DNA of 64,000 bases from Bacillota bacterium. Lineage in GTDB: Bacteria; Bacillota; Sulfobacillia; DUSP01; DYEP01. This document shows positions 12,045 through 45,089 of the stretch, one piece after another (within the stretch, counting starts at the first letter, position 1; every line of letters begins with the position of its first letter). The notes beneath the pieces are model-generated. The model was not told the DNA's origin and did no database searches. It saw only the letters and a list, made by a program, of their open reading frames with translations. The DNA is taken from contig JBFMAL010000003.1 of NCBI GenBank assembly GCA_040755615.1, forward strand, positions 8,507-72,506. Direction: 5' to 3'. Position numbers and translations under genes: made by a program.

Positions 12045-12076
12045 GTCAATCCCCCTGAAACAGTATTTGCAGGCCT

Positions 12077-14353: not shown

Positions 14354-14367
14354 TGAACCCACCTCCC

Positions 14368-19430: not shown

Positions 19431-19458
19431 TCGTGAATCCACCCCAAACGTTTTCGAT

Positions 19459-20679: not shown

Positions 20680-20726
20680 GGTTTCACGGACCCCTTTCGT
20701 TCATGCCGGCTTGGACCACTCACGCC

Positions 20727-21647
20727 CTACACCTTCTCCACTGTCTTTTCGCCGAGGATGCCTTCCGGCTTGAATATCATGAACAGCACGACGACCATGA
20801 AGGCGAATACGCTGGCGTACGCTGTGCCCCCGTGGATGTACCCGGAGACGAACACCTCGACGAAAGCGATGAGCATGGAGCCGACGATGGCTCCGTAGGT
20901 GTTGCCGAGCCCGCCCACCACGGCTGCGGAAAACCCTTTCAGACCGTACAGCGCGCCCATGTCAAACCTGATGATGCTGTAATAGGAGCCGATCAGGAAG
21001 CCGCCGATACCAAGCAGCAATCCCCCAATAACGAAGGTCAGTGTGACGATGGCACCGGGGTTGATCCCTATCATGCACGCGGCTTCCTTGTTCTGGGATA
21101 TCGCCTGCATGGACTTGCCTGTCTTGGTGCGGTTCACAAACAGAAACAAAAGCGTCAAAAGGACCAAGGTTGTACCCAAGATGATGAGGTTTCTGTACGA
21201 GAGGATGGCCATATCAGACAGCGCTCCCCCGGGCAGGAGCCTTGGAAACACGTGCGGGTTTCTGCCCTGCGGGTAAAACAGCCCGATGAGCTCACGTATC
21301 ACCACGCCAAGAGCGATCGTGCTGAGGAGCGGCATGAGCGAGGGTCTTCCCTCAAATGGTTTCACCCCCACCCTGTGCGTCGTCACGCTGAGAAGTGCGC
21401 AAAGCATGGTCCCTCCGAGCACTACTGCGAGCGTTAACAGCCACACGGGAACACCAGCCACGAGCCCGCCCGCTACTGCCAGGGAGTAAATCGCAAGTAC
21501 GCCGAATGCTCCGAAGATAGCGATATCCCCTACACAGAAGATCACTGTATCAATGACCCCGAAAAACAGCGAATACCCTATGGCAGCCAGGGTGTAGCAG
21601 CTACCAAGTAGCAACGCGTTCATAACCTGCTCGGTGAAAACAGACAC
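20727..21647 (-). CDS. livH: Branched-chain amino acid ABC transporter permease (LivH type)
   Basis: Polytopic membrane protein; LivH-like. Confidence 0.8.
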   Translation of the reverse strand: MSVFTEQVMNALLLGSCYTLAAIGYSLFFGVIDTVIFCVGDIAIFGAFGVLAIYSLAVAGGLVAGVPVWLLTLAVVLGGTMLCALLSVTTHRVGVKPFEGRPSLMPLLSTIALGVVIRELIGLFYPQGRNPHVFPRLLPGGALSDMAILSYRNLIILGTTLVLLTLLFLFVNRTKTGKSMQAISQNKEAACMIGINPGAIVTLTFVIGGLLLGIGGFLIGSYYSIIRFDMGALYGLKGFSAAVVGGLGNTYGAIVGSMLIAFVEVFVSGYIHGGTAYASVFAFMVVVLFMIFKPEGILGEKTVEKV

Positions 21648-21729
21648 TTCGTATTATCCTCCTCCGGCGTCTTGTTTGCCAAAAACCCTATAGAAATAAA
21701 AAACGGGGAAACGGGGCCGTCCTTAAAAC

Positions 21730-22944
21730 CTATTTGGGAAGGGTCCTCTTCCCTGTGGCGTATTCAGAGTCATCCCACGGTACCCATTTACCATCCTGGA
21801 CCACCAGTATGGTAGCTATGGCGTTGGTCGTCTGGCCGACCGAGTTGAACTTGGTCGTACCCAAAAGGCCTGAATACTCTATCTTGGCTATGGCGTCGAT
21901 GAGTTTGTCCCTGTCAGGTCCGACCTGCTTCAAAGCGGCCAGTATAATGCCTGCCGCATCATAAGCGTAAGGCCCGTACACGCCGAAAGGCTCTTTAAAT
22001 CCTGCCTTCTCATATTCAGCCACGAACTGAGCCCCGCCGGGGAGCTTGTCAATGCTCTTTCCGGGCTTGCTGCTAATGGTGCCTTCAGCGTTGGCTCCTG
22101 CGACCTCGATATACTTCTCCGAGCCGATACCGGATATGGCTGCCATGGGCACCGTGATCCCGAGCTCAGCCATTTGCTGCTTGATCAGCGCGCCTTCCAT
22201 TACCACGCCGCCAAAGTACACTGCGTCGGGGTTCAAACTCTTGATCTTGGTTAGAATCGGACGGAAATCTGTCTGGCCTACCTGGATTTCGTCCACGCTC
22301 AGGATCTCCGCGCCGGCTCGTTTGCCCACTTCGTCTTTCCATGCCGCGGTGTTGTTCTTTCCATAAACGCTGGTGTCAGAAATGATAACCCACTTTTTTA
22401 GGCCCATCTGGTCAATAGCGAAGTTGGCCAGCGGGATGTTCTCCTGAACGGAGGTGGGGCACACGCGCGTGACAATGGGGTAGTTCTCCGCAGTTGTCAA
22501 AGTCGGAGAGATGGCCCCCCAGATGACAAACGGTATGCCTGCCTGTTTGAAGACGGGAATGGTCGCTTCCGCCACCGGGCTGTTCCAATGTCCGCTGGCA
22601 GCCACCACATCCGGGTCGGATGTGATTTTAAGCGCAGCTGATACGCCGGTTGCCGGCGTGGAGGCGTCATCCATCTCAATTACTTCGATCTTGAAAGGGA
22701 ATTGTCCGGATTCGTTCGCCAGCTTAATGGCAAGGTTGAATGCATTCCTCGCACCTGTCCCCTGATACGCGTTAGGCCCTGTGAGAGGTCCAATGAAGCC
22801 GATTTTGACAACCTTGGGTGTCTCGGGAGCTGTGTCTTTTGGTGCCGCTGCATCCCTGCCGCAGCCAGTCAGGCTGAAGCCAAAAAACAGGGCGACCACT
22901 ATCAACAAGCCGGTCAGTCTGACAGTCTTGCGCGAAGCAACCAT
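21730..22944 (-). CDS. Liv-type ABC transporter substrate-binding lipoprotein (periplasmic binding protein family I)
   Basis: Signal peptide with lipobox …FSLTGCG…, then …KIGFIGPLTGPNAYQG…. Start at MVASRK (22944) behind GGAGG; the longer ORF upstream is discounted. Confidence 0.75.
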   Translation of the reverse strand: MVASRKTVRLTGLLIVVALFFGFSLTGCGRDAAAPKDTAPETPKVVKIGFIGPLTGPNAYQGTGARNAFNLAIKLANESGQFPFKIEVIEMDDASTPATGVSAALKITSDPDVVAASGHWNSPVAEATIPVFKQAGIPFVIWGAISPTLTTAENYPIVTRVCPTSVQENIPLANFAIDQMGLKKWVIISDTSVYGKNNTAAWKDEVGKRAGAEILSVDEIQVGQTDFRPILTKIKSLNPDAVYFGGVVMEGALIKQQMAELGITVPMAAISGIGSEKYIEVAGANAEGTISSKPGKSIDKLPGGAQFVAEYEKAGFKEPFGVYGPYAYDAAGIILAALKQVGPDRDKLIDAIAKIEYSGLLGTTKFNSVGQTTNAIATILVVQDGKWVPWDDSEYATGKRTLPK

Positions 22945-23344
22945 CTGTTTTCCTCCCTCTTCCTCCCATAATTGTGTGATAACCCAACAAGACACCTTCA
23001 ATCTGACTTGACGCCCTCTTTGAATACCGCTGCAAGGCCAGCCCCGTTCCCCGCTTGCAAGCCTTACGGTTGCTAATCTCCGCGCCCCACCCCCTATTTG
23101 CCCAGCATATCCTGCTCTTCCTTGCGTCATTTCTTCATTGAGTCGACTTAACCTCTTTTTGACCCCGCAGCCTGGGCCCAGAAACACTTATCCATCTCGC
23201 CCTGGCTCGCCTCGCGCGCCCCGGGCTGTCGGGCACAAACTGCCCACAGAGCCTAAAGCACCATCTCGCGGGCTTTCTTATGAAGCGATGATCTCTTTGA
23301 CCACCGCGCGCAGCGAGATCGGTCTTCTCTTTATTACTACTTCA

Positions 23345-23360
23345 GCAACAACTGTGCCAC
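23345..23360 (-). promoter_or_regulatory. Sigma-54 (RpoN) -24/-12 promoter driving the livK / Mo-hydroxylase / livGF operon
   Basis: Minus strand reads G-TGGCAC-AGTTG-TTGC-T, a near-perfect match to TGGCAC-N5-TTGCW. It lies about 400 nt upstream of the livK ATG and divergent from the sigma-54 activator gene. Confidence 0.6.
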
Positions 23361-23587: not shown

Positions 23588-25327
23588 TTGTCACTGCTTA
23601 TGAAGATCCGAACTTTTATGAAGCTGGCTGACACTGCGGAAATCGGCATCCTGATACTCGGACGCGAGGGCTGCGTGTCCTGTGTCAACAACACCGCGGC
23701 TCAACTTCTGTGGCAGAAAAGTGCTCTGCCGGCTACGCAAAAGACCCTGCCTCCTGCGCTCCTCACCCTGTTTTGCCCGCCTCAGGGTAAGGGGAGAGCG
23801 ACCGTTGTCGCGCGCGGGCGGGTTGAGCTCCCGGGCGGGACGGTGTCGGCGCGGGGCGGAGTGACATTCAGCTCGGGTGTGATTCAGCACGCGTTTCTTT
23901 GCTTGGTGAGAGCTACCGATGATACAGCGAAAGATCAGATCAGCGCGCTGGAGGAACGGCTGAGTACGCTCGAGCAGATTCTCCAGGCCTCCTACGATGA
24001 AGTGTTGGCCACCGATGGCAACGGCGTTGTGTTTTTCGCGAATCACGCCTTTGAAACCCACTACGGCGTGCCCGTATCGGACGTGATCGGGCGTCACGTC
24101 AAGGACCTTGAAAAGGACGGGTTATGGGAGAATTCGGTCACTCCAATGGTGATCTCCAGCAAGCAGCGCATAACCATCCAGCAACGCACTGCGATCGGTA
24201 AGACCATGATCGTCACCGGTACGCCTGTACTTGATTCAAACGGGGAAGTGAAGATGGTGGTGTGCAACGCGCGGGACGTTACCGAGATGAACAAGCTGCA
24301 CTCCGAGCTTGAGAAAACCAAGGACCTGGTGAGGATCTACCAGAAGCAGCTGGCGCTCCAGAGCGAGGGGGAGTTCATCGTATCCCGCAGTGCAAAAATG
24401 CAAGCCGTGCTGGAAACAATGGAGAAGGTGGCCAGGACCGACGTGACCGTGCTGCTGCGCGGCGAATCAGGCGTGGGAAAAGACGTGATCGCCCGGGCAA
24501 TCCACAAAATGGGGTCAAGGCGGGACAAGCTGTTCCTGAAGGTAAGTTGCGCGTCTATCCCCGAGCACCTGATTGAGGCAGAGCTGTTCGGTTACAAGCC
24601 CGGAGCATTTACCGGCGCGCAGAAACAGGGTAAAGCAGGCCTTTTGGAGATCGCGCAAGGCGGAACCATATTCCTTGACGAGATAGGCGAACTGCCCATG
24701 GGGCTTCAGGCAAAGCTCTTGCAAGTACTTGACGAGAAGCAGTTCTTGAAGCTGGGCGATACGAAGCCGACTCGTGTCGATGTCCGGGTGATCACCGCAA
24801 CTAACAGGGATCTCGAAACCATGATTGACCAGGCACTGTTCCGCAGGGACCTCTACCACAGGCTCGGCACGGTCACCATCTTCATACCCCCTCTCAGGGA
24901 GAGACCCGAGGACGTGCTGGCGTTTCTCCATTACTACCTTGACTCCCTGAACAGGAAGTACCAGACACAAAAGCGGTTTGACCCAAAAGCCATTAACGCA
25001 CTTCTGTCTTACCGATGGCCCGGCAACGTGAGGGAGCTCGCCAACCTGCTCGAACAGCTCGTGGTCACGGTGGACGACGACGTTATTGGGCTTTGCAGCC
25101 TGCCCCCTGACATCGTGGTCCAGACCGAAAACGGTGCTTTGCCAGGCCTTCGCGGGGCAGGCTCCCTGGCGGAAGCGCTTGAGTCGGTGGAAGCTACCAT
25201 CATACGCGAGGCATACAGGCGTTACGGCAGCAGCTACCAGGTCGCGCGGGCGCTGGGCCTCAGCCAGTCGGCCGCTTATAGAAAGTACCAAAAGTACGTG
25301 GTAGGTGAAGGTACCGGCCAAAGGTAG
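23588..25327 (+). CDS. Sigma-54-dependent transcriptional activator (PAS sensor, AAA+ sigma-54 interaction domain, Fis-type HTH)
   Basis: GESGVGKDVIARAIH Walker A, GAFTGA motif (…KPGAFTGAQ…), and C-terminal HTH …YGSSYQVARALGLSQSAAYRKYQKY. Confidence 0.85.
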   Translation: MSLLMKIRTFMKLADTAEIGILILGREGCVSCVNNTAAQLLWQKSALPATQKTLPPALLTLFCPPQGKGRATVVARGRVELPGGTVSARGGVTFSSGVIQHAFLCLVRATDDTAKDQISALEERLSTLEQILQASYDEVLATDGNGVVFFANHAFETHYGVPVSDVIGRHVKDLEKDGLWENSVTPMVISSKQRITIQQRTAIGKTMIVTGTPVLDSNGEVKMVVCNARDVTEMNKLHSELEKTKDLVRIYQKQLALQSEGEFIVSRSAKMQAVLETMEKVARTDVTVLLRGESGVGKDVIARAIHKMGSRRDKLFLKVSCASIPEHLIEAELFGYKPGAFTGAQKQGKAGLLEIAQGGTIFLDEIGELPMGLQAKLLQVLDEKQFLKLGDTKPTRVDVRVITATNRDLETMIDQALFRRDLYHRLGTVTIFIPPLRERPEDVLAFLHYYLDSLNRKYQTQKRFDPKAINALLSYRWPGNVRELANLLEQLVVTVDDDVIGLCSLPPDIVVQTENGALPGLRGAGSLAEALESVEATIIREAYRRYGSSYQVARALGLSQSAAYRKYQKYVVGEGTGQR

Positions 25328-25383
25328 CCAGCACTCAGCAAATGCCTGCTGCAGCCGGAATCTGACTTAATCTCAGAAAAAGG

Positions 25384-25716
25384 GTGACCATTATGTCTGA
25401 GCGAGAGACCGTTCTGGTAACCGGGTATTCCAAGGCGCCTCAGGGCACTGTCATGCACGAGGTATATCGTTTGTGCGGCGTAGTGCTGGAGATCGATCCT
25501 GAAACCAACGTGATCGTCGATGCAGAACTGACATTCATCACTGACCTGGCGCAGCGCTTTTTCCACAAGCTGATCGTGGGTTACAACCTGTCTGACGGCA
25601 TCGACGGCCTGGTTGAAAGGATCAGAAAGCGCTATCTGGCCCCTTCGGACGAAGCGATGATAGCGGCCCTCAAGACCGCCATCCAACGCTTCATGGAAAC
25701 ATATGGCAGGAAATAA
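25384..25716 (+). CDS. Small conserved protein of unknown function (110 aa), first gene of the CoA-transferase operon
   Basis: Clean ORF with protein-like composition in the expected operon position. Possibly a DUF3870-type protein; that rests on memory only. Confidence 0.4.
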   Translation: MTIMSERETVLVTGYSKAPQGTVMHEVYRLCGVVLEIDPETNVIVDAELTFITDLAQRFFHKLIVGYNLSDGIDGLVERIRKRYLAPSDEAMIAALKTAIQRFMETYGRK

Positions 25717-25933
25717 CCGCTGCAGAATCTTGTTCAAGCAGAAGGAAAAATGGATAATTCGGAGAATATGTGTAGTTAACAAAACCCTATACAGTCCACG
25801 CAGGAGCAGTTTACCTGTCCTGGGCCGGTAACCCCGGAGCAGAAAAACAGGTGAAACCTAGCCCTCCTTCAACTCGCAAGAGTGTTGGAGCAGGTGCTAG
25901 GTTTTTGTGTTTTGATGAAGGAGGGAGCGATGT

Positions 25934-26845
25934 ATGAAGCAGGCCAAGGTTATGAACCTGGCCAGAGCAGTCAGCGAGCTGGTGCACGACGGAGACACAG
26001 TGTACCTGGCCGGGTTCACCCATCTCATTCCGTTCGCTGCAGGCCACGAAATCATCAGGCAACGAAAGCGTAACCTCACACTCTGCAGAGCCACTCCTGA
26101 CCTGATCTACGACCAGATGGTGGCAGCCGGATGCGCGAAGAAACTGGTGTTCAGTTGGGCAGGAAACCCGGGAGTGGGGCTTTTGCGCTCGATCCGCAAA
26201 GCGCTGGAACAAGGCGAGCTGGAGATCGAAGAGTACACGCATTACGGCATGACCGCACGGCTGATGGCGGGCGCCACAAACATGCCGTTTTACCCCCTCA
26301 GGTCAAATCTCGGATCAGACCTTCCCAGCGTGAATAAGGAGATAAAGTACGTGACCTGCCCCTACACCGGCAAGCGTATCAGCGTGGTACCCGCCCTGAA
26401 CCCCGACGTGTCCATCATCCACGTGCAGAGGGCGGACCGCCATGGCAACGCTCACATCTGGGGTATCGTGGGCGAACAGAAAGAGGCGGCCTTCGCGGCC
26501 TCCAGGGTGATCCTGACAGCAGAGGAGATCGTGCCGGATGAAGTCATCGCTTCCGACCCCAACCGCACGCTGATCCCCGGCATGATCGTGGACGCAGTGG
26601 TAGAAGTGCCGTGGTGCGCCCATCCTTCCTACGCCCAGGGGTATTACGACAGGGACAACCAGTTCTATATCGAGTACGAGGAGATCACCAAGGACCCCGG
26701 CGGGCTTTCAAGGTGGCTCGATACGTGGGTGTACGGTGTGGCTGACCGGCGAGAGTACATGGAGCGCCTGCCCGCAGCCCGCGTGCTCGCCCTGCAAGGC
26801 CGTAGGAGGTACAGCTATCCTGTAGACTACGGGTATTATGCGTGA
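25934..26845 (+). CDS. CoA-transferase subunit A (glutaconate / 3-oxoacid CoA-transferase family I)
   Basis: …VHDGDTVYLAGF…, …SWAGNPGVG…, family-I alpha-subunit layout. Confidence 0.75.
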   Translation: MKQAKVMNLARAVSELVHDGDTVYLAGFTHLIPFAAGHEIIRQRKRNLTLCRATPDLIYDQMVAAGCAKKLVFSWAGNPGVGLLRSIRKALEQGELEIEEYTHYGMTARLMAGATNMPFYPLRSNLGSDLPSVNKEIKYVTCPYTGKRISVVPALNPDVSIIHVQRADRHGNAHIWGIVGEQKEAAFAASRVILTAEEIVPDEVIASDPNRTLIPGMIVDAVVEVPWCAHPSYAQGYYDRDNQFYIEYEEITKDPGGLSRWLDTWVYGVADRREYMERLPAARVLALQGRRRYSYPVDYGYYA

Positions 26846-26857
26846 GGAGGAAGTACC

Positions 26858-27625
26858 GTGAAGTATACCAGTGCAGAAATGATGGTCGTGACCGCAGCGC
26901 GCATGTTGAAAAACGGTGACAGGGTGTTTGTCGGTATCGGCATGCCCAACCTCGCCGTAAACCTGGCCAGGAGGCTTCATGCGCCGGACATTCACATGAT
27001 CTTCGAAGCGGGAGTGATCGGTGCCAAGCCCTCACGGCTGCCTCTCTCCATCGGGGACCCGTGTCTTGTGACCGGTGCCGGCTCCGTATGCAGCATGTTC
27101 GACGTCTTCGCCTTTTATCTCCAGCGGGGCCTTATCGATATAGGGTTTCTTGGTGCGGCCCAGGTAGACAGATACGGAAACCTGAACAGCACGGTCATCG
27201 GGCCGTACGACCGGCCCAAGGCAAGACTTGCCGGAAGCGGCGGAGCGTGCGATATCGCGTGCCTTGCAAAGAAGGTCTTCGTGCTTATACCGCATGAGAA
27301 GCGCCGCCTGCCCGAAAAGGTGGACTTCATCACGAGCCCTGGTTTTCTCGGCGGAAGAGCAGAGCGGGAAGCGCTCGGCCTTGAAGGAGGGCCTGATACC
27401 GTCATCACCAACAAAGGGGTACTCCGGTATGACGAGACCGGAGAGATGATACTCACATCCATACATCCCGGCGTGACCGTCGGCGAGGTGCTAGCCAACA
27501 CCGGATGGGAACTGAAGGTATCCCGCACGCTTGAGATCACCCCCGACCCCAATGACGAAGAACTCAGAATCCTGAGGGAGGAGTTGGACCCAGCAGGGGT
27601 GTACCTGGGAGGCGCTATCGCATGA
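26858..27625 (+). CDS. CoA-transferase subunit B
   Basis: …VFVGIGMPN…, …LAGSGGACDIA…, conserved catalytic Glu region …FEAG…. 4-nt overlap with the next gene. Confidence 0.75.
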   Translation: MKYTSAEMMVVTAARMLKNGDRVFVGIGMPNLAVNLARRLHAPDIHMIFEAGVIGAKPSRLPLSIGDPCLVTGAGSVCSMFDVFAFYLQRGLIDIGFLGAAQVDRYGNLNSTVIGPYDRPKARLAGSGGACDIACLAKKVFVLIPHEKRRLPEKVDFITSPGFLGGRAEREALGLEGGPDTVITNKGVLRYDETGEMILTSIHPGVTVGEVLANTGWELKVSRTLEITPDPNDEELRILREELDPAGVYLGGAIA

Positions 27626-28791
27626 GGCGAGTGGCCATCGTGGGAGCAGGTCAGAGCAGGTTCGGCGATTTCCCCGGCATGAGCATTAAGGAACTGTTCG
27701 CAGAGGCATATGCCGAATGCGCCGCATCGGTGGACCGAGGCATCCCTCCTCGGGCGATAGATGCGGTATTCCTCGGTACGCTCGGCACGGGCGGATTCCA
27801 GCTCGGCCAGCCGGCCGCACTGCTGACGAGTTATGTCGGCCTTGCCGCTGTACCCTCCGTACGCATAGAGAACGCGTGCGCTTCAGGCGGGTTCGCGCTG
27901 CTGTCCGCGGTGCACGCTGTATGCGCGGGAGTCTACCGTACGGTGCTGGTGGCGGGAGTGGAGAAAATGAGAGACCTCTCGGCTGATCACGTCAGGTATT
28001 GGCTCGGAGTATCGGGTGACACAGAGTACGAGCGCCTCGCCGGACTCACGTTCGCAGGGATTTATGCCATGATGGCAAGGCACTACCTGGCCCGATACAA
28101 CGTCCCTAGAATCTACCTTTCTAAAGTGGCTGAAAAGAACCATGCGCACGGAGTGCTTAACAAGAAGGCCCACCTGAGACGTCAGATATCGTTGGAAGAA
28201 GCACAGAGCGCCCCCATGGTCGCGGACCCGCTGAACCTATTTGACTGCTCGCCTACAAGCGATGGTGCAGCGTGCGTGCTCATCACCTCGGAGGATCATG
28301 CAGACCGTTTCACTGACAGACCGGTATGGATCCTTGGCTACGGAGCCGGAGGCGACCACCTGGCACTTCACGACAGGCAGGACTGGTGCAGCCTTGCAGC
28401 CACCCGGGATGCGTCCAGGAGAGCATACGAAATGGCAGGTCTCGGGCCCTTAGACATCGACCTGGCTGAAGTGCACGACTGCTTTACCATAGCAGAGCTC
28501 CTGGCTTACGAAGACCTGGGCTTCTGCAACCGGGGTGAGGCACCTTCGCTGCTTGACAAAGGCGTTACCCGCATCGGCGGTTCGCTGCCGGTGAATCTCG
28601 GCGGCGGACTGAAGTCCAAAGGGCATCCCCTCGGGGCTACGGGTGTCGCCCAGGTCGCGGAGATGTTCTTCCAGCTCCGGGGACAGGCGGGCGAGCGCCA
28701 GGCATCTAAGCACCGCACTGGGCTCACCCACAATGTGGGCGGATCGGGCGGGACTGCGGTGGTCTTCATCCTGGGGAGGGATCTAGATTGA
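27622..28791 (+). CDS. Thiolase, SCP-x / non-specific lipid-transfer-protein type
   Basis: MRRVAIVGAGQSRFG…, active-site …ENACASGG…, …NLGGGLKSKGHPLGATG…, the typical SCP-x thiolase signature. Confidence 0.75.
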   Translation: MRRVAIVGAGQSRFGDFPGMSIKELFAEAYAECAASVDRGIPPRAIDAVFLGTLGTGGFQLGQPAALLTSYVGLAAVPSVRIENACASGGFALLSAVHAVCAGVYRTVLVAGVEKMRDLSADHVRYWLGVSGDTEYERLAGLTFAGIYAMMARHYLARYNVPRIYLSKVAEKNHAHGVLNKKAHLRRQISLEEAQSAPMVADPLNLFDCSPTSDGAACVLITSEDHADRFTDRPVWILGYGAGGDHLALHDRQDWCSLAATRDASRRAYEMAGLGPLDIDLAEVHDCFTIAELLAYEDLGFCNRGEAPSLLDKGVTRIGGSLPVNLGGGLKSKGHPLGATGVAQVAEMFFQLRGQAGERQASKHRTGLTHNVGGSGGTAVVFILGRDLD

Positions 28792-29795
28792 ATAGCGCTC
28801 ACATTACTGCTGCATGGGTATATACACCCGCGTACCGGATCCGGAAAGAGGAATACCTGAGCGCTCTCGGCGCGTTCTCCGCTCCCGGTATTACGGAGAA
28901 GTCGGTTGCGGGCCCGGACGAGGACCCGCTCACCATGGCAGTGGAGGCGGTCCGCGGTCTGCTGGAGGCATCGGGAACCGATCCATCGCGAATCCGCGCC
29001 ATGTGCCTTGCATCCACCACCTGGCCGTACCTCCACAAACACCCTGGCGGAGCGGTCGCGGAAGCGACCGGCCTTCCGAGCAATATCTTTACTACATGCC
29101 ACTTCGCCTCCGGAAGAGCGGGGACCGAGGCGCTGCTCACAGCGGTGCTGACCACACACTCGCTCGGCCCTAGCCTCGCTGTGATCTCCGATACCCCGGT
29201 CTTCTCCCCTGCCGATCCCCGCGAACACGGCCAAGGAGCGGCCGCGGTGGCCCTGCTTGTTGAACCGAGAGAGGGCGATGCCATCCTCTCTGTCAACGCC
29301 TGGGCAAGCACGACCAGAGAGAGCCTCGGTACCCTGTGCGCCGAAAGAGGCAACCCTTATCCATCAGAACAGCGCAACCAGGGGCATGCAGATCAGGAGC
29401 TCAGAGACACCATCGTCCCGTGCGTGAGGAACCTTTTTGAAAGCTCCGGCACCGACGAGAGCGCTTTTTTATCACTGTCGGTAAATGAGACGGATGCGAA
29501 AGAACCCGCCAGGTACAAAAACGCCCTGGGGTTTTCAAGTGCCAGGGCGCATACCGGCCCTGTCGTCTTCCTCGGACATACAGGCGCGTGCAGCGGACTT
29601 CTGTCGCTGCTTCACGCCGCCTCAGGTGCCGCTGCCGGCAGTCGGCTGCTGCTTGTTTCGTACGGGTACGGGGCTGCGTGTGACGCCATATCGTTCACAG
29701 TGAAAACTCCGTCTGCCGCGTGGGCCGGGCAGCTTCGCCCGTCCATCTACCTGACTTATACGGAATACCTGAGGTACCGCGGCCTCTTGCCCTAG
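28788..29795 (+). CDS. HMG-CoA-synthase-like thiolase-fold condensing-enzyme homologue
   Basis: 335 aa, initiation-condensing-enzyme fold features (…AVISDTPVFS…, …GAAAVALLV…). Sits in the thiolase / HMGCS / DUF35 gene order known from archaeal mevalonate pathways. Confidence 0.5.
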   Translation: MNSAHITAAWVYTPAYRIRKEEYLSALGAFSAPGITEKSVAGPDEDPLTMAVEAVRGLLEASGTDPSRIRAMCLASTTWPYLHKHPGGAVAEATGLPSNIFTTCHFASGRAGTEALLTAVLTTHSLGPSLAVISDTPVFSPADPREHGQGAAAVALLVEPREGDAILSVNAWASTTRESLGTLCAERGNPYPSEQRNQGHADQELRDTIVPCVRNLFESSGTDESAFLSLSVNETDAKEPARYKNALGFSSARAHTGPVVFLGHTGACSGLLSLLHAASGAAAGSRLLLVSYGYGAACDAISFTVKTPSAAWAGQLRPSIYLTYTEYLRYRGLLP

Positions 29796-29868
29796 AAAGG
29801 AGGGTATCACCCTGGGAGCCCACGTTTCCGTTCCGAATTACCAGAGAACTATCAGGCAGAGATACCGG

Positions 29869-30228
29869 ATGAAAGCATGCAGGTGCAGGGAGTGTGGCTT
29901 GGTCCTCTTCCCCCCGAAAGGCGCATGTCCCCGCTGCCAGAGTCAGGCGCTGGCCGAGTTCGCGCTATCAGGCTATGGCAAGGTCGGGACGTATACGGTA
30001 ATCGGACAGGGAGGAGCCCCGCCCGAGTTCGCGGAGCTCGCCCGCACCCTCGGCAGCTATGTAGTCGCCATCGTGAACCTGGATGAAGGGCCTTCAGTCT
30101 GCGGCCAGGTGGTCGACGTAAACCCGGGCGATGTCCGGGAAGGGATGCGGGTGCGGCAGGTATTCCGCAAGCTTTACGTACAGGAAGGCGTTACCCGGTA
30201 CGGCTATAAGTTCAGGCCCGTTGATTGA
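29869..30228 (+). CDS. DUF35 Zn-ribbon / OB-fold protein (thiolase-complex scaffold)
   Basis: CRECGLVLFPPKGACPRCQS zinc ribbon followed by an OB-fold. Confidence 0.75.
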   Translation: MKACRCRECGLVLFPPKGACPRCQSQALAEFALSGYGKVGTYTVIGQGGAPPEFAELARTLGSYVVAIVNLDEGPSVCGQVVDVNPGDVREGMRVRQVFRKLYVQEGVTRYGYKFRPVD

Positions 30229-30243
30229 CCGTAAAAAGGAGGA

Positions 30244-30639
30244 TTGTTGCCAGTGGCGCTTCAGACTGTCTCGGAAAAGTGTTCAGGGTGCAGGCTGTGC
30301 CAGCTGTTCTGTGCGTTGGTGCATTTCGGCGAGAACAACCCGGCGAAGGGCGCGCTCCGCATAACCGGCGTCTTCCCCGATCCCGGGCAGTACACGGTTA
30401 CGGTGTGCGACCAGTGCGGGCTGTGCGCTGAAGAATGCCCGGAAGAAGCCATCATCCTTAAACACAACAACTACGTAGTGCTGGAAGACAGGTGTACAAA
30501 GTGCGGCATATGCGTTGACGTATGTCCGACCCGGTCTATCTTCTTAAGAGACGATGAACCGGCGGCCATCAAGTGCGACGGCTGCCTTGAGTGTGTACCC
30601 TACTGCCCGCGCGAAGCGTTACTGCCCAAGGAGGTGTAA
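30244..30639 (+). CDS. 4Fe-4S ferredoxin (multi-cluster), TTG start
   Basis: Four CxxCxxC(x)nCP motifs (CSGCRLCQLFC, CDQCGLCAEECP, CTKCGICVDVCP, CDGCLECVPYCP). Ribosome-binding site AAAGGAGG 7 nt upstream. Confidence 0.75.
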   Translation: MLPVALQTVSEKCSGCRLCQLFCALVHFGENNPAKGALRITGVFPDPGQYTVTVCDQCGLCAEECPEEAIILKHNNYVVLEDRCTKCGICVDVCPTRSIFLRDDEPAAIKCDGCLECVPYCPREALLPKEV

Positions 30640-30642
30640 GCC

Positions 30643-32490
30643 ATGTCAGTTCTTTATGGATACGGGGGGAGCATCCTCGACATCGACCTATCGACTCAGA
30701 GAGTGTCGAAGTCCCGCCTGGAGCCTGATTTTGCCAGGAAATACATCGGAGGCCGCGGGTTCGTGGCAAGGCTGCTCTGGGACCTCATCCCGAAAGGAGC
30801 CGACCCGCTCGGGCCGGACAACGTGGCAGTGGTGGCCGCAGGTCCTCTGACCGGTGCGTTCCTGCCCTCCCCGAGCAAGGTGGAGTTCGGGGCGAAATCC
30901 CCAGCCACAGGAGGATACGGGGACAGCAACATGGGCGGCCACTTCGGGCCAGCGATGAAGCACGCGGGGTACGACGTGTTTATCATAAGGGGCGCCTCCG
31001 CCACTCCCGTTTATATCGCCATCGACGATGACACCGTGCTGATCAGGGATGCCTCCCACCTGTGGGGAAAGGGCTCGTATGCCACCGAGAAAGCGCTGAA
31101 AGAGGAACTGGGAGACGATTTCCAGATCGCGGTCATCGGGCCGGCCGGCGAAAACCTGGTAAAGATCGCCTGTATCACGCATGATTTCGGGCGCCAGGCC
31201 GGAAGGTGCGGCATCGGGGCGGTATGGGGCTCCAAGCGACTGAAGGCAGTTGCGGTGAGGGGAAGCCGGGGCTTCCCGGTGGCCGATCCGGCGGCCATGT
31301 TCAAAAAGGGCAAGGAGATGTTTGATATCATCTTCAAACTGCCCGGCTTTAAGGAGTGGACTCCGTACGGCACCGCGGAAATCACCGACTGGTGCAACGT
31401 ATCGGGGGTTTTCCCGACAAGGAACTTCTATACGGGCTATTTCCCGCACTACGAGCAGATCAACGGCAGAGCGCTCCGGCAGCCCATCGTCACGCTGGAC
31501 AAAGGTTGCTTCGGATGCCCGATTCCCTGCGGGAAGTACTCGCACGTGAACCTTCCCCAAGGCTCAGCCAGGGTAGAAGGCCCTGAATACGAGACGGTGG
31601 CGCTGTTTGGCGGAAACTGCGAGCTGTCGCGTATTGAGGAGATCGCCTACGCGAACTGGCTGTTCGACGACCTCGGCATGGATACCATCTCCGGCGGTAA
31701 CATCGTCGCCTTCGCCATCGAGTGTTTTGAGAAAGGCATCATCTCCCAGGGCGACCTGGGGGGAAGGGCGGTCAGCTTCGGGGATCTCGATTCGGTCATC
31801 CATATCGGAAAACTCATCGCAAACAGGGAACATATCGGTGATCTCCTGGCCGAAGGGGTGAAGGCCGCGAGCGCACGCCTCGGCAAGGGCTCGGAGCATT
31901 TTGCCATTCACGTGAAGGGGCTTGAGGTCAGCGGGTATGAGCCGCGGTATGCAGCCGCCATGCTCCTTGCCTACATGACCTGCGACGTCGGCGCCCACCA
32001 TAATAGAGCCTGGGCAATCACCTACGATATCTCCGTCGGGCGCGACAAGCTGGAGGGAAAGGCTGCAAAGGTAGTTGAACTTCAGCACCTCCGTCCCCTG
32101 CTCGATGCGCTGGGGATATGCCGATTCCCCTGGATCGAGGTGGGTTTTGAGCTCAGGCACTATGCGGAGATTTTCCCGATGATCACCGGAAGCAAAGAGA
32201 CCTGGGAGGAGCTGAACAGGTTGTCTGAGAGGATATGGAACCTGACACGGGCGTTCTGGGTCCGGGAGGTGCCGGGTTTTGGCCGCTCGTGGGACAGAGC
32301 TCCAGGCCGGTTTCTCACCGAGCCGGTCCCATCAGGCGCCGCTCATGGCAAGCTCCTGGGAGAGGAGATCACAGAGCGGTTGCTAGACGAGTACTACCGG
32401 CTGAGGGGCTGGGATGAGCAGGGTGTACCAAAGAGAGAGAAACTGTTGGAACTTGGCCTTTCCGACGTGGCTTCTGTACTTTACGGATGA
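30643..32490 (+). CDS. Aldehyde:ferredoxin oxidoreductase (tungsten-containing AOR family)
   Basis: N-terminal …GGRG…, AOR domain-1 features, 4Fe-4S Cys ligands (…CFGCPIPCGK…), 615 aa. Confidence 0.85.
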   Translation: MSVLYGYGGSILDIDLSTQRVSKSRLEPDFARKYIGGRGFVARLLWDLIPKGADPLGPDNVAVVAAGPLTGAFLPSPSKVEFGAKSPATGGYGDSNMGGHFGPAMKHAGYDVFIIRGASATPVYIAIDDDTVLIRDASHLWGKGSYATEKALKEELGDDFQIAVIGPAGENLVKIACITHDFGRQAGRCGIGAVWGSKRLKAVAVRGSRGFPVADPAAMFKKGKEMFDIIFKLPGFKEWTPYGTAEITDWCNVSGVFPTRNFYTGYFPHYEQINGRALRQPIVTLDKGCFGCPIPCGKYSHVNLPQGSARVEGPEYETVALFGGNCELSRIEEIAYANWLFDDLGMDTISGGNIVAFAIECFEKGIISQGDLGGRAVSFGDLDSVIHIGKLIANREHIGDLLAEGVKAASARLGKGSEHFAIHVKGLEVSGYEPRYAAAMLLAYMTCDVGAHHNRAWAITYDISVGRDKLEGKAAKVVELQHLRPLLDALGICRFPWIEVGFELRHYAEIFPMITGSKETWEELNRLSERIWNLTRAFWVREVPGFGRSWDRAPGRFLTEPVPSGAAHGKLLGEEITERLLDEYYRLRGWDEQGVPKREKLLELGLSDVASVLYG

Positions 32491-32503
32491 TGGAGGAGAT
32501 CTG

Positions 32504-33844
32504 ATGGGCCGGGACTTTGTGTTTTACAGAGATACGAAAAAGCAGATGCCGGTGATCGCCAGGGGTGAGGGCATCTACCTCTGGGACACGGAAGGTAAGA
32601 GATACATCGACGGGTGTTCAGGAGCGCTGGTGTCGTCCATCGGACACGGGCGGACCGAGATCTCTGACGCCATTCGGGAAGCGGCCAGCCAGGTGGCATT
32701 CGTCCACCTGTCGCAGTTCACCAACAAGTACTTGCAGCATCTGTCAGCCGAGATAGCGTCGATCACCCCGGGCGATCTCAACTGGTGCTACTTCGTGTCG
32801 GGCGGGTCTGAAGCGGCGGACACCGCCATTAAGATGGCGCGTCAGTATCACCTGGAGCGAGGTCAGCCCTCCCGTTACAAGGTCATCGGCAGGTGGCAGG
32901 CATTTCACGGCAATACCATAGGTGCGATGTCAGTGGGCGGGCACACCGCGCGGAGGAAGATGTACGCGCCGCTTCTCCTTGACTTCCCGCACGCCGTCCC
33001 CGGGTACTGCTACCGGTGCCCCTACGGCCGCGCCTACCCGGAATGCTCCCTGGCCTGCGCGGACGACGTGGAGCGCATCATTCTGCAGGAGGGCCCGGAA
33101 AACATCGCCGCTTTTATGTGTGAAATCGTGTCGGGAGCCTCCGCGCCGGGAGTGCATCCGCCTGCAGGCTACTACGAAAAGATACGCGAAGTGTGCGACG
33201 CCCACGGAGTGCTGTTCATCGCGGACGAGGTGATGACTGGATTCGGCCGTACGGGAGAGTACTTCGCGTGCCAGCACTATGACGCGATCCCCGATATCAT
33301 CATGTGCGCCAAGGGCATGAGCGCAGGCTATGCGCCCATAGGGGCCGTGCTCGCCTCGGAGCGGGTATACCAGGCGTTTCATCAGGGCTCGGGCAGGTTC
33401 GTTCACGGCTATACGTATGGCGGCAACCCGGTGTCGGCTGCCGCGTCGCTCCGGGTGATCACCTTCCTGAAAGAACATGGCGTCCTGGAGAACGTGAAGT
33501 CCACCGGCAGGTATCTAAAGGACCGGCTTTCCGCACTCGCCGGCGAACACCGGATCATCGGAGATGTGAGAGGTCTTGGTTTAATGCAAGGCATTGAACT
33601 GGTCGCGTGCAAGGAGACCAGGGAACCGTTTCCACAGCGACTCGAAGTCACAAACAGGCTGAAGGCAGTCGCGTTCCAGAAAGGTCTCCTCGTATACCCC
33701 GGAGCAGGCTGCGTAAACGGCCGGGATGGCGACGCGGTGTTGATCGCCCCGCCGCTTACCATCACCGTAAAGGAGGTGGATGAACTGCTTGACGTCTTTG
33801 AGGACGCGTTAAGTCTCGTTGAGTCAGAGCTTCTTAATTCCTGA
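32504..33844 (+). CDS. Class-III (omega) aminotransferase, aspartate-aminotransferase-family PLP enzyme
   Basis: …GSEAADTAIKMARQY…, …FIADEVMTGFGRTG…, PLP Lys context …AKGMSAGYAPIGA…. ATG 32504 behind GGAGG. Confidence 0.85.
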   Translation: MGRDFVFYRDTKKQMPVIARGEGIYLWDTEGKRYIDGCSGALVSSIGHGRTEISDAIREAASQVAFVHLSQFTNKYLQHLSAEIASITPGDLNWCYFVSGGSEAADTAIKMARQYHLERGQPSRYKVIGRWQAFHGNTIGAMSVGGHTARRKMYAPLLLDFPHAVPGYCYRCPYGRAYPECSLACADDVERIILQEGPENIAAFMCEIVSGASAPGVHPPAGYYEKIREVCDAHGVLFIADEVMTGFGRTGEYFACQHYDAIPDIIMCAKGMSAGYAPIGAVLASERVYQAFHQGSGRFVHGYTYGGNPVSAAASLRVITFLKEHGVLENVKSTGRYLKDRLSALAGEHRIIGDVRGLGLMQGIELVACKETREPFPQRLEVTNRLKAVAFQKGLLVYPGAGCVNGRDGDAVLIAPPLTITVKEVDELLDVFEDALSLVESELLNS

Positions 33845-33861
33845 CAGGGAGGTTAGCGAAA

Positions 33862-34071
33862 ATGACTGATCGCGGGTTCTTTCCTCTGGAGAAGAAGTAC
33901 GCTGCGGCCCTCATCACGTATATCGCTCTGGCGGTCGTATTCTTCCTTCCTTGGGCGCGCCAGCACAGCGTGTACGGCGTCTCGCTGTTCGGATGGCTCA
34001 TGGGTGCGTTTATGTTTGTAGCGCCTCTCATCAATTTGCTGCTGCTACGGTCTGATAACACGGGGAAGTAG
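33862..34071 (+). CDS. Small two-TM membrane protein, putative auxiliary subunit of the sodium:solute symporter (DUF4212-like)
   Basis: 69 aa, two hydrophobic helices, sits immediately upstream of and is co-oriented with the SSS transporter. Confidence 0.5.
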   Translation: MTDRGFFPLEKKYAAALITYIALAVVFFLPWARQHSVYGVSLFGWLMGAFMFVAPLINLLLLRSDNTGK

Positions 34072-34084
34072 GAGGTGTCTTGAA

Positions 34085-35515
34085 ATGAGAACGACCGAAC
34101 TCGCTGTGACACTCATTTATATCGTGGTGTGTATCGGTATCGGGCTGTGGGCAAGAAGCAAGGTGCGCGAGTCCAAGGACGATTACTGGGTAGCGGGCAG
34201 GAGAGTTGGCGTATTCACCAATACCTGGGCGATCATGGCTGCGCTGGCAAGCGGCGGGTCCATCCTCGGAGTAACAGGCCTCGGCTACAGGCTGGGCCTG
34301 CCTTATGTGTTCTCGATGTACGCAGGAGCGGTAGTAGGGTTCCCCATAGCAGCCATCCTGGTCGCCAAACCCCTCGTAAACTTGGGAAAATACACGATCA
34401 CTGACTTTTTGACGGAAAGATTCGATTCAAAACTCCTGAAGGTAGTCATACCGCTGATCATCCTTATCTCAATGGGCACCTACATCGTGGCCCAGATGAA
34501 AGCCGCAGGTGTGGCTGCGCAGTACCTCCTTGCCATCTCCTACAATCATGCGATCATTCTGACATCGATAGTGTTCATACTGTACGTTTCCATCGGAGGA
34601 ATGTGGGCTGTCACGGTTACCGACGTGCTGCAGGGTATCATCATGGTAGGTATGATGCTGCTGGTAGCCGTGATCTCTCTGGCACGCTTCGGCGGGCTGG
34701 GCGGCCTTCTGACGCAGGCAACCGCGGTAGCTCCGAACATCGGTCAACTGGTGAACATGCCGATGTCCTCATATGTGGGCGCCTTTGTGGTATGGGCAGC
34801 AGCGATTCCTGTCATCCCTCACATCGTGATGCGTATCTACACGTCCAAGGATGTGAAGTCGGCAAGGCTATCGCTGAATTACGCCATGCTCATCTACGCC
34901 TTCATGATATTCTTCGGGGTGGTTGGGATCTCGGCAGGAGGTCACCTCCTGGCGCCGGGACTGAAAGACGCGGACACGGTCTACCTGATCATGGTGGAGA
35001 ATTTCCTGCCGCGGGTGCTCGGCGGGCTGGCGCTGGCCGCGGTGATGGCAGCCGTGATGTCCACTACAGACGCACTGCTGCTGGCCTGTGCCAGCGCTGT
35101 TTCGCACGACCTCTATGAGCGGGTCATCAATCCCAAGGCTTCGGATAAGACCCTCGTAAACATCAGCCTTGTGACCACGTGGGTGATCGGGCTGCTTGCC
35201 ATGTTCTTCGCGTTCAACCCTCCGAAGCTTCTCACGATGCTGTACACGGCCGCTGTGGGTCTTATCGTGTCATCGCTCTTTGTACCGACTATCCTTGGCA
35301 TCTGGTGGAAAGGGACGAACACGCAGGGAGCAACTGCTGGCGTCCTGGTAGGCGCCGTATCATACCTCTGGCTGCTCTGGTTCACAAAGATGCCGGCGCT
35401 GTCCCACGTGCTTGTGTCGCTGCCCCTCTGCCTCGCTGTGACGGTCATCGTCAGCTTGCTGTCTCCGCCTCCCAGCGCGGCCACTCTTGAGAGAGTACAG
35501 CAGCTTCACAGGTAA
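34085..35515 (+). CDS. Sodium:solute symporter family (SSS) transporter
   Basis: …WVAGRRVGVFTNTWAIMAALASGGSILGVTG…, 13-TM topology typical of PutP/ActP-type SSS carriers. Confidence 0.85.
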   Translation: MRTTELAVTLIYIVVCIGIGLWARSKVRESKDDYWVAGRRVGVFTNTWAIMAALASGGSILGVTGLGYRLGLPYVFSMYAGAVVGFPIAAILVAKPLVNLGKYTITDFLTERFDSKLLKVVIPLIILISMGTYIVAQMKAAGVAAQYLLAISYNHAIILTSIVFILYVSIGGMWAVTVTDVLQGIIMVGMMLLVAVISLARFGGLGGLLTQATAVAPNIGQLVNMPMSSYVGAFVVWAAAIPVIPHIVMRIYTSKDVKSARLSLNYAMLIYAFMIFFGVVGISAGGHLLAPGLKDADTVYLIMVENFLPRVLGGLALAAVMAAVMSTTDALLLACASAVSHDLYERVINPKASDKTLVNISLVTTWVIGLLAMFFAFNPPKLLTMLYTAAVGLIVSSLFVPTILGIWWKGTNTQGATAGVLVGAVSYLWLLWFTKMPALSHVLVSLPLCLAVTVIVSLLSPPPSAATLERVQQLHR

Positions 35516-43263: not shown

Positions 43264-43822
43264 TTCTTTCACCCCTTGACAAGTATTCAACAAGAGCCCT
43301 CCCCCACCCTCCATTCCGAACCTATCGAACGGTAAGATATGAACGCCCGGCAGGGGCAGTCGCCGGAAACCTGCCAAATGACGCAAAGCAGCAGTGTTGT
43401 CTTCAGATACGTTCAGGAAGCTGGTTTGTTGACGGTATACTCCGCAGTCCAGAGCCTGATGGAGCTGCCCGGCATCGACAGTGTGCAGGTCCTGATAAGG
43501 GAAAGCGTGAAGAGGCTCCGGGGCTACCTGATCATCAGCGAACCTGTCCGGCAAAAGCCCCGCCATGGTGAAGAGTAAGCGGCGTACGTACAGCGGCGGA
43601 ACTTCCGTGATAGCGCTTTCGTCCACATATACTGTAGATTCGTACTGGAAAGCTGAGTATTGACAACACGACGGAATAGTTGCCACATAATGGTGAAACG
43701 TAAGGCAATAAGAGAAGTGTGCAGAGAATGGTCTTGGGGTCACCAGCGAGTACGGAGTCCGGCTCCACAGGAAGTAACGGATGTCAGGTATTGTGATCTT
43801 TTTTGAACCGGGAGTGATACTT

Positions 43823-45046: not shown

Positions 45047-45089
45047 AACCTTCAGATGACCGGGGGGGGGCCGCGGGCTCCCCCTTCAC

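Follow-up and report, generated by a model that had tools for sequence, protein, structure and literature searches.

What does an archaeal-type set of three genes, encoding a thiolase, a protein related to 3-hydroxy-3-methylglutaryl-CoA synthase (HMG-CoA synthase, HMGCS) and a DUF35 protein, do in a bacterial operon beside a CoA-transferase and an aldehyde:ferredoxin oxidoreductase (AOR)? The set lies in a 64,000-nt stretch of DNA from a Bacillota bacterium (assembly GCA_040755615.1, contig JBFMAL010000003.1, positions 8,507 to 72,506; hereafter the window). It had been pointed out in an earlier annotation, here called the sequence-only reading, which took the HMGCS-like member for a possibly inactive enzyme acting as a scaffold. 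The three open reading frames (ORFs) are tightly packed and co-directional and lie where that annotation had put them, apart from the DUF35 start, which is revised below:

27622–28791, + strand: SCP2/archaeal-type thiolase, proposed catalytic subunit (Pfam Thiolase_N and Thiolase_C_1; PRK06064; 6esq_A, E = 9e-84)
28788–29795, + strand: HMG-CoA-synthase-fold protein of 335 aa without the E-C-H-N tetrad, proposed non-catalytic structural subunit (alignments, AlphaFold2, Foldseek)
29812–30228, + strand: DUF35 protein with Zn ribbon and OB fold, probable CTG start (Pfam zf-ChsH2 and OB_ChsH2_C)

We think it likely that this trio is a beta-ketothiolase working in the direction of thiolysis only, with one catalytic and two structural subunits. 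That the three genes encode a heteromeric degradative beta-ketothiolase within an operon for anaerobic amino-acid breakdown is a reading of the sequences that we favour with some reserve. The nearest genome is that of Symbiobacterium sp. Tomsk_54_12, in which both the operon and its flanking genes recur. Among the loci used for comparison, L001 and L008 are from Symbiobacterium sp., and L003 and L009 from Firmicutes UBA3576.

The HMGCS-like protein and its two partners

A Pfam scan of the protein encoded at 28788–29795 (TTG start, 4-nt overlap with the thiolase stop) gave no match. The archaeal HMGCS model PRK04262 matched it with 152 bits, below the cutoff of 244, and the NCBIfam KAS III models matched only at E > 1e-3. 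In a sequence search of the PDB the best match was 6esq_I (4e-24), followed by PhlA (2e-20 and 2e-18), with FabH appearing only at E > 5e-4. An AlphaFold2 model built on 26 relatives (mean pLDDT 91, pTM 0.91) was compared with the PDB by Foldseek, which placed 6esq_J/I at the top (TM 0.88), then PhlA, MucA and free HMG-CoA synthases, and FabH structures only from rank 35 (TM ~0.76). Judged by this modelled fold and the sequence matches, the protein has a true HMGCS-family affinity, as had been proposed. The outcome that would have spoken against the proposal, a plain FabH/KAS III paralogue, can be set aside because archaeal HMGCS outranks FabH in both sequence and fold; the Cys-His-Asn triad is also absent.

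In the numbering of Methanothermococcus thermolithotrophicus HMGCS, the catalytic tetrad consists of E82, C114, H238 and N270. The equivalent residues in the window protein are T77 (E82), G109 or S108 (C114), N233 (H238) and H264 (N270). The counterpart of C114 is G109 in the ungapped MAFFT register and S108 in the gapped HMMER register, neither of which is a Cys. Canonical bacterial and archaeal HMGCS keep all four residues in the same alignments. The unusual sequence noticed earlier at the expected catalytic Cys is thus part of a wider loss, which takes in the whole tetrad and not the Cys alone. When 1.84 billion cluster representatives were searched exhaustively with HMMER, 954 relatives were obtained, the nearest non-self one with 39% identity, and the tetrad is missing in all of the best 50 of these 954. 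Since the Glu, Cys, His and Asn of the active site are lost, the subunit would be unable to make HMG-CoA.

Two substitutes for the lost residues were considered and rejected. Cys104 (in TTCHF) could have been a displaced nucleophile, but it is kept only in a homologue of 83% identity and is Glu in most relatives. H264 and N233 could have formed a swapped His/Asn pair with decarboxylase chemistry, but H264 is not conserved, as the same closest homologue has Tyr at position 264. The tetrad-less HMGCS-like protein at 6548–7564 of locus L088 reaches 260 bits with PRK04262, a 'hydroxymethylglutaryl-CoA synthase' equivalog with a cutoff of 244, and dead copies are therefore likely to be annotated automatically as active HMG-CoA synthases.

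The thiolase passes the NCBIfam model PRK06064 (452 bits, cutoff 420) and stays below the archaeal acetoacetyl-CoA thiolase equivalog (406 bits, cutoff 600). Its best match in the PDB is 6esq_A from the archaeal complex (9e-84), followed by BbsB (2e-44) and PhlC (3e-30), which bears out the earlier assignment as an SCP-x-type thiolase. The CxS, HDxF and GHx motifs are needed for thiolase chemistry in the HMGS/ACAT/DUF35 family (PMC12960953). All three are retained, as Cys86 in ENACASGG, HDCF at 285–288 (His285, Cys287) and GHP at 334–336 (His335), and the motif residues are invariant in the paired alignment A4. The thiolase shares 34–48% identity with thiolases of canonical loci compared to 53–69% inside the tetrad-less class. 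In a metagenome scan, the aminomutase-linked and CoA-transferase-linked loci described below were precisely the ones that supplied the closest thiolases (55–59%).

The DUF35 ORF was first called at 29869–30228. Its family assignment, a Zn ribbon and an OB fold, was upheld by Pfam, but not its start. The gene most likely begins 57 nt earlier, at a CTG codon (29812–29814; 6232–6234 in L001) that lies 7 nt past the ribosome-binding site AAAGGAGGG. We place the start there because the resulting N-terminal extension of 19 aa, GAHVSVPNYQRTIRQRYR, is conserved and the distant orthologue in L003 has an ATG at that codon. The four Zn-ribbon cysteines (C25, C28, C39 and C42; rubredoxin-like) are invariant in alignment A4. 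The public gene call for the DUF35 gene of L001 begins later and loses the first CxxC of the Zn ribbon.

Gene order, fusions and evolutionary rate

Gene order was sampled in 80 genome loci found with the HMGCS-like alignment and 80 metagenome loci found with the thiolase, and the operon proteins were mapped on them by tblastn. The genome loci were fetched with a four-sequence alignment (A2), whose patterns also drew canonical archaeal HMGCS, and these served as a control. Of the 84 loci with the order HMGCS-thiolase-DUF35 (canonical archaeal), 83 carry the E-C-H-N tetrad, whereas all 21 loci with the order thiolase-HMGCS-like-DUF35, as in the window, lack it. The earlier statement that the window follows exactly the archaeal order was therefore wrong. 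Given this split (83/84 against 21/21), the thiolase-first order is diagnostic of the tetrad-less class. The class is also found within the Archaea, in metagenome-assembled genomes (MAGs) of Odinarchaeota, Baldrarchaeota and Bathyarchaeia.

Natural fusions of the HMGCS-like and DUF35 proteins, with a domain order that equals the gene order here, could be identified in 52 of the 150 best relatives. Such fusions suggest, as Rosetta-stone evidence, a physical association of the two proteins, which are encoded by separate genes in the window. The 4-nt overlap of the HMGCS-like start with the thiolase stop points the same way.

The HMGCS-like protein is the fastest-evolving member of the operon. 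It shares 36% identity with its counterpart in L003, 36% in L172 and 83% in L001, while all other operon proteins are 90–100% identical to those of L001. The corresponding values (L003, L172 and L001) are 72–76, 67–74 and 94–95% for the CoA-transferase, 69, 66 and 93% for the thiolase, 58, 58 and 91–93% for DUF35, and 56, 46 (AT1) and 92% for the aminotransferase. The AOR (63% in L003, 92% in L001) and the symporter (70% and 97%) are not present in L172, and a small hydrophobic protein encoded ahead of the symporter has 53% identity in L003 and 94% in L001. The ratio of nonsynonymous to synonymous substitutions against L001 (dN/dS; Nei-Gojobori) is 0.23 for the HMGCS-like gene, compared to 0.073 for the thiolase, 0.077 for DUF35 and 0.03–0.15 for the rest. 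The HMGCS-like protein thus evolves about three times as fast as its neighbors and is still under purifying selection; its constraint is relaxed roughly threefold, but the gene is not decaying. Sequence, fold, rate of evolution and fusions all speak in this way for the suggestion that an inactive HMGCS serves as a scaffold.

The operon, its relatives and the proposed reaction

The trio is part of a co-directional string of genes on the + strand (23588–35515), with a sigma-54 activator first and a sodium:solute symporter (SSF) last. Besides the trio it contains:

23588–25327, + strand: sigma-54-dependent transcriptional activator with PAS sensor, likely regulator of the locus (Pfam Sigma54_activat, PAS, AAA_lid_14 and HTH_50; position kept in L001)
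25393–25716, + strand: DUF3870 protein, conserved companion of the module (Pfam PF12986, E = 3e-27)
25800–25925, + strand: conserved 5' leader, possible attenuator (L001/L003 alignment; fold z-score −3.4)
25934–26845, + strand: CoA-transferase subunit A, GctA-like (Pfam CoA_trans; best PDB match 1poi_A, E = 3e-46)
26858–27625, + strand: CoA-transferase subunit B, GctB-like (Pfam CoA_trans; best PDB match 1poi_B, E = 1e-58)
30244–30639, + strand: poly-[4Fe-4S] ferredoxin, presumed electron acceptor of the AOR (Pfam Fer4 family; position kept in L001 and L003)
30643–32490, + strand: tungsten-type AOR of the FOR clade (Pfam AFOR_N and AFOR_C; best PDB match 1b25)
32504–33844, + strand: class-III aminotransferase of the omega-/beta-amino acid type, 446-aa form as in L001 (Pfam Aminotran_3; PRK07483)
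33862–34071, + strand: hydrophobic protein of 69 aa ahead of the symporter (hydrophobicity from inspection of the translation; no Pfam match)
34085–35515, + strand: SSF symporter, presumed substrate importer (Pfam SSF; TIGR00813, 206 bits, cutoff 184)

As the sequence-only reading had seen, the trio is flanked by a CoA-transferase and an AOR instead of HMG-CoA reductase, with the transferase upstream and the ferredoxin and AOR downstream. When the window ORFs of 200 aa or more were scanned with Pfam, neither HMG-CoA reductase nor any other mevalonate gene turned up among them, and neither did polyketide synthase (PKS), non-ribosomal peptide synthetase (NRPS) or other secondary-metabolite machinery.

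The CoA-transferase is closest to the dicarboxylate-using glutaconate CoA-transferase GctAB (1poi), and its subunit A has thousands of homologs at 60–73% identity. Among PDB structures the AOR is nearest to FOR of P. furiosus (1b25, 3e-146), followed by 1aor (3e-115), WOR5 (1e-74) and BamB (6e-63). By sequence similarity only, it was assigned to the FOR clade, since it is nearer to FOR than to AOR, GAPOR, WOR5 or BamB. Dicarboxylate semialdehydes are the probable native substrates of FOR; a 2025 review presumes glutaric semi-/dialdehyde, and FOR crystals bind glutarate (PMC12096430). The aminotransferase passes NCBIfam PRK07483 (506 bits, cutoff 485), and its PDB matches are omega-transaminases.

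The tetrad-less trios that we examined lie in catabolic operons, which supports the earlier view of an archaeal-type trio in such a setting. In L002 the trio belongs to a beta-oxidation operon with 3-hydroxyacyl-CoA dehydrogenase, enoyl-CoA hydratase, acyl-CoA dehydrogenase, MaoC and a family III CoA-transferase. Carboxydothermus islandicus (L014), also of the beta-oxidation type, has an iron-containing alcohol dehydrogenase and an AOR, then an IclR gene, then the trio between an acyl-CoA dehydrogenase gene and genes for 3-hydroxyacyl-CoA dehydrogenase, enoyl-CoA hydratase, acyl-CoA dehydrogenase and enoyl-CoA hydratase. Four archaeal MAGs (Odin-, Baldr- and Bathyarchaeia) encode CoA-transferase A and B followed by thiolase, HMGCS-like protein and DUF35, with 54–59% identity for the CoA-transferase. 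In L088–L092, which are likely archaeal, the trio is followed by CoA-transferase A and B and a HemL-like aminotransferase. This group is divergent from an adjacent lysine 2,3-aminomutase gene, whose product passes the AblA equivalog TIGR03820 (592 bits, cutoff 525). L172 has the order DUF3870, aminotransferase, CoA-transferase A and B, trio, aminotransferase, amid GNAT, M20 and oligopeptide-transporter genes. The DUF3870 gene precedes the module in L172 as well as in L001 and L003/L009. The full arrangement of the window, with ferredoxin, AOR, aminotransferase and symporter, is found in three lineages, including L001/L008 and L003/L009. A module of one or more aminotransferases, a GctAB-like CoA-transferase and the trio thus recurs in Bacillota and is joined here by a FOR-type AOR.

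Genes for peptidase S58 (the DmpA/BapA beta-aminopeptidase family) and M20 recur beside the CoA-transferase/trio module, in L013 (Bathyarchaeia, 1272–6978) and in L088–L091, and in L013 a MttB-family methyltransferase is encoded directly upstream. The S58 and M20 neighbors hint at a beta-amino acid or peptide-derived substrate. In L007, from an uncultured relative, an insertion of 3.7 kb splits the genes for CoA-transferase A and B (1023–6394); it carries two AAA_15 ATPase/DUF4276 gene pairs and looks like a defense-type cassette. L173 (Ignavibacteriales) was uninformative as a comparison locus, having only an Ato-type transferase and a lone thiolase beside a transposase.

The best relatives of both large subunits are found in the archaeal complex of M. 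thermolithotrophicus (6ESQ/6ET9), where the same three families occur together and the thiolase has identical catalytic motifs. The window trio differs in the missing HMGS tetrad, the thiolase-first order and the catabolic context, with no mevalonate genes among the scanned ORFs. PhlACB of Pseudomonas protegens (5M3K/5MG5) and MucABC of Streptococcus macacae (9VBO), the second- and third-best structural matches, also have three subunits, a tetrad-less HMGS-like protein and a DUF35 bridge. However, both have lost HDxF, which the window thiolase keeps as HDCF, and they belong to antibiotic clusters with the order A (HMGS-like), C/B (thiolase), DUF35, whereas the neighbors here are a CoA-transferase, an AOR, an aminotransferase and a transporter. 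The benzoylsuccinyl-CoA thiolase BbsAB (7PXP) and other SCP2-thiolase/DUF35 pairs resemble the window system in having an HDxF thiolase with DUF35, in acting thiolytically and in belonging to anaerobic catabolism. BbsAB and Ltp2-ChsH2 have two components only, while the window has the HMGCS-like gene between those for thiolase and DUF35, and its proteins score 167 bits for BbsB (cutoff 750) and 23 bits for BbsA (cutoff 250). We take the steroid and benzylsuccinate entries in the PDB to be thiolase/aldolase-DUF35 pairs, not trios.

Liao et al. (2026, Nat Commun; PMC12960953) described 1,030 bacterial loci at which genes for HMGS, ACAT and DUF35 lie together; 1,001 of these loci lack biosynthetic neighbors. 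PfACAT/HMGS-DUF35 of P. fluorescens has no tetrad and keeps Cys/HDxF/GHx. It cleaves acetoacetyl-CoA, with an essential HDxF His, and forms neither acetoacetyl-CoA nor HMG-CoA (PMC12960953). PhlACB and MucABC additionally lost HDxF and became C-acyltransferases, and PhlC and MucB cannot cleave acetoacetyl-CoA (PMC12960953). The authors regard the P. fluorescens type as an evolutionary intermediate 'not yet recruited into a defined specialised pathway' (PMC12960953). The window trio shares with it a tetrad-less HMGS-like part, a thiolase with CxS/HDxF/GHx and a lack of PKS/NRPS neighbors, and the thiolysis-only activity of PfACAT/HMGS-DUF35 in vitro is the mechanism that we propose here. Because of this residue-for-residue match, we place the window trio in the same class. 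It differs in that the HMGS-like protein and DUF35 are fused in P. fluorescens and encoded by separate genes in the window, and in that the operon around the window trio is a defined catabolic one, which also encodes a GctAB-like transferase, an aminotransferase and a FOR-type AOR. True precedents for the trio are PhlACB, MucABC and PfACAT/HMGS-DUF35. The sequence-only reading had pointed to bacterial steroid and alkylsuccinate pathways running in the retro-Claisen direction; the thiolytic direction agrees with the P. fluorescens assay (PMC12960953), but those precedents are thiolase-DUF35 pairs.

In the mechanism that we propose, the thiolase would be the sole catalyst, with Cys86 as acyl acceptor, the HDCF loop as acid/base and His335 of GHP polarizing the thioester. 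The HMGCS-fold and DUF35 proteins would have come down from the archaeal thiolase/HMGCS/DUF35 complex as structural partners, the former probably kept for oligomer assembly and a shared CoA-binding chamber. The predicted reaction is 3-oxoacyl-CoA + CoA giving acetyl-CoA and a shorter acyl-CoA. It would run in the thiolytic direction only, a consequence of catalysis by the thiolase alone and of an HMGCS-like subunit that would not make HMG-CoA. Within the operon, the symporter may import an amino acid and the class-III aminotransferase deaminate it, and the FOR-type tungsten enzyme, together with the ferredoxin encoded beside it, would oxidize a terminal aldehyde if one is formed. The GctAB-like CoA-transferase would put the 3-oxoacid onto CoA and the trio cleave the 3-oxoacyl-CoA, with a thiolysis product recycled as CoA donor, similar to the logic of PcaIJ/PcaF or AtoDA/AtoB.

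As preferred substrate we tentatively suggest a beta,omega-diamino acid such as beta-lysine, an assignment that is possible but on balance doubtful. It is put forward because this is the sole type of substrate that would use every enzyme of the operon and need no other. Beta-lysine would pass through 3-aminoadipate semialdehyde, 3-aminoadipate, 3-oxoadipate and 3-oxoadipyl-CoA to acetyl-CoA and succinyl-CoA; an equivalent order would lead through 6-amino-3-oxohexanoyl-CoA, 4-aminobutyrate (GABA) and succinate semialdehyde. A beta-lysine substrate also fits the aminomutase neighbors and the two aminotransferases of L172. The module may, though we would not count on it, form the center of a so far undescribed anaerobic pathway that degrades beta-lysine or its osmolyte form N-epsilon-acetyl-beta-lysine. 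Along such a route C3 and C6 would be transaminated, the aldehyde oxidized and CoA transferred, and thiolysis would yield acetyl-CoA and succinyl-CoA or succinate. Literature searches for AOR with Gct, aminotransferase and thiolase, and for beta-lysine with thiolase and CoA-transferase, gave no described pathway of such composition.

The Kat lysine fermentation of 'Ca. Cloacamonas acidaminovorans', with a Kat aminotransferase, AtoAD and an acetoacetyl-CoA thiolase (Perret et al., 2011; PMC3149608), offers a partial parallel. There too, genes for a class-III aminotransferase, a CoA-transferase of two subunits and a thiolase lie together, and the enzymes work on beta-amino/beta-keto C4 units, and lysine 2,3-aminomutase is adjacent in the related loci L088–L092. 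The window differs in having an aminotransferase of the omega-transaminase and not the HemL-like type, a Gct-type and not an Ato-type transferase, a three-part thiolase, and an AOR with ferredoxin. None of the neighborhoods examined contains kamDE, kdd or kce.

Several points weigh against the beta-lysine assignment, which is weak, and against parts of the wider model. No aminomutase was found in the window, and its aminotransferase is of the omega-transaminase type, unlike the HemL-like type of the KamA loci. These loci can be read as the acetoacetate/acetoacetyl-CoA end of Kat lysine fermentation (PMC3149608), and the FOR and Gct similarities suit a route from 5-aminovalerate to glutarate equally well. 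A search for sigma-54 promoters ahead of the + strand operon gave no convincing site. That thiolase, HMGCS-like protein and DUF35 most likely form one complex is suggested by homology and fusions. Finally, a residual or new activity of the HMGCS-like protein is conceivable because Ser108 is nearly invariant, being kept in at least 90% of 26 tetrad-less relatives, and because of its dN/dS of 0.23.

The operon might instead degrade 5-aminovalerate, or cadaverine/GABA-type omega-amines, which we consider unlikely but deserving of attention. The aminotransferase would then give glutarate semialdehyde, the FOR-type AOR glutarate, and glutaryl-CoA would be formed by the Gct-like transferase with acetyl-CoA as donor. 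The way on to acetoacetyl-CoA would lead over glutaryl-CoA dehydrogenase, crotonase and 3-hydroxybutyryl-CoA dehydrogenase from genes outside the operon, and the trio would cleave the acetoacetyl-CoA, regenerating the acetyl-CoA donor. GctAB, the best relative of the transferase, accepts glutarate. Crystals of FOR, the best structural relative of the AOR, bind glutarate, and the presumed native substrate of FOR also suits this route (PMC12096430). The aminotransferase falls among omega-amino-acid transaminases, and the only assayed homolog of the trio cleaves acetoacetyl-CoA. Glutaryl-CoA dehydrogenase, enoyl-CoA hydratase and 3-hydroxyacyl-CoA dehydrogenase, however, were not found among the scanned window ORFs or in the gene lists of orthologous operons, and therefore the operon would hold a generic step of the pathway and not the specific one. 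The tight cross-domain linkage of CoA-transferase A and B to the trio and the aminomutase neighbors would also be left unexplained.

The other alternatives concern the trio itself. It is rather improbable that the HMGCS-like protein has gained a new catalytic or substrate-handling role beyond that of a scaffold, such as Ser108-based acyl transfer or hydrolysis, decarboxylation, or the presentation of an acyl-CoA or 3-oxoacid to the thiolase. Its Ser108, the other invariant positions (K38, D44-E45-D46, H147 and E178), a dN/dS that indicates selection and the inactivity of the catalytic subunit of MucABC on its own (PMC12960953) would all suit such a role. Yet the position of the catalytic Cys is variable across the family (G, S, D, T, A), as are those of His and Asn, H264 is replaced in the closest homolog, and no protein of the operon evolves faster. 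A Friedel-Crafts-type C-acyltransferase like PhlACB/MucABC, moving the acetyl group of acetyl-CoA to a small-molecule acceptor, is very improbable. The HMGCS-like protein finds its next-best matches, in sequence and in fold, in PhlA and MucA, which are tetrad-less too, and the local motif FASGRAGT resembles FSGKSGT of PhlA; against this, the thiolase keeps the HDxF lost in PhlC and MucB (PMC12960953), matches the archaeal thiolase (9e-84) far ahead of PhlC (3e-30), and has catabolic neighbors, with no PKS/NRPS genes among the scanned ORFs. We give hardly any credence to a canonical mevalonate or biosynthetic complex that would condense acetyl-CoA to acetoacetyl-CoA and pass it on to HMG-CoA or acetoacetate. 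The trio is homologous to the archaeal complex, thiolase reactions are reversible, and the CoA-transferase could pull the condensation. This is what a CoA-transferase does in clostridial acetone formation. But none of the four HMGS catalytic residues is present, the genes stand in another order, mevalonate genes were not found among the scanned ORFs, and the assayed tetrad-less homolog made neither HMG-CoA nor acetoacetyl-CoA; the importer, aminotransferase and aldehyde oxidoreductase of the operon are catabolic. A canonical mevalonate complex was therefore rejected.

Possible regulatory elements, other clusters and significance

The leader at 25800–25925 (~125 nt) lies between the DUF3870 and CoA-transferase genes, and its nucleotide sequence is conserved in L001 and L003/L009. 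It reads CAGGTGAAACCTAGCCC...GGTGCTAGGTTTTTGTGTTTT, with a terminator-like hairpin and U-run just upstream of the CoA-transferase gene, and an Rfam search with it gave no match. From the three sequences compared, an attenuator is a possible role, as is a riboswitch of undescribed type for the substrate of the operon. Beside the sigma-54 activator gene, a near-consensus sigma-54 -24/-12 element, TGGCACAGTTGTTGCT, could be identified at 23344–23359 on the - strand, upstream of divergent genes of a Liv-type ABC transporter (21730–23187 and onward, - strand).

These transporter genes belong to a cluster at 10540–23187 (- strand), which contains large subunits of xanthine-dehydrogenase-family molybdenum hydroxylases (12077–14434 and 17079–19520), FAD-binding subunits (14838–15764 and 16171–17082) and a complete Liv-type ABC transporter. 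Under the same activator, it may serve as a degradation system of its own for N-heterocycles or amino compounds. A cluster at 2382–7936 (- strand) encodes a LUD-domain/CCG/4Fe-4S protein, a second CCG/4Fe-4S protein and an FAD-linked oxidase, and resembles a lactate- or glycolate-type oxidoreductase cluster. A radical SAM/SPASM protein (45090–46346, - strand) adjoins an ORF of 421 aa with no Pfam match (43781–45046, + strand), and the two (43781–46346) may form a peptide-modification locus.

The tetrad-less HMGS/ACAT/DUF35 type was described in 2026, and its placement in a probable amino-acid breakdown operon is new. Apart from two antibiotic-tailoring acyltransferases, the class had been given no physiological role; the window and its relatives place it in defined catabolic operons in both Bacteria and Archaea and offer concrete, testable substrates for these orphans. 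For annotation, the thiolase-first order can be used as a rule that the tetrad is lost, separating real from dead HMG-CoA synthases. The HMGCS-like subunit would be a natural example of an enzyme retained as a structural subunit after its catalysis was lost. The beta-lysine route, if true, would bypass the B12-dependent 5,6-aminomutase/Kdd/Kce pathway, and the ~1,000 'orphan' tetrad-less loci would gain a physiological role and not be evolutionary leftovers.

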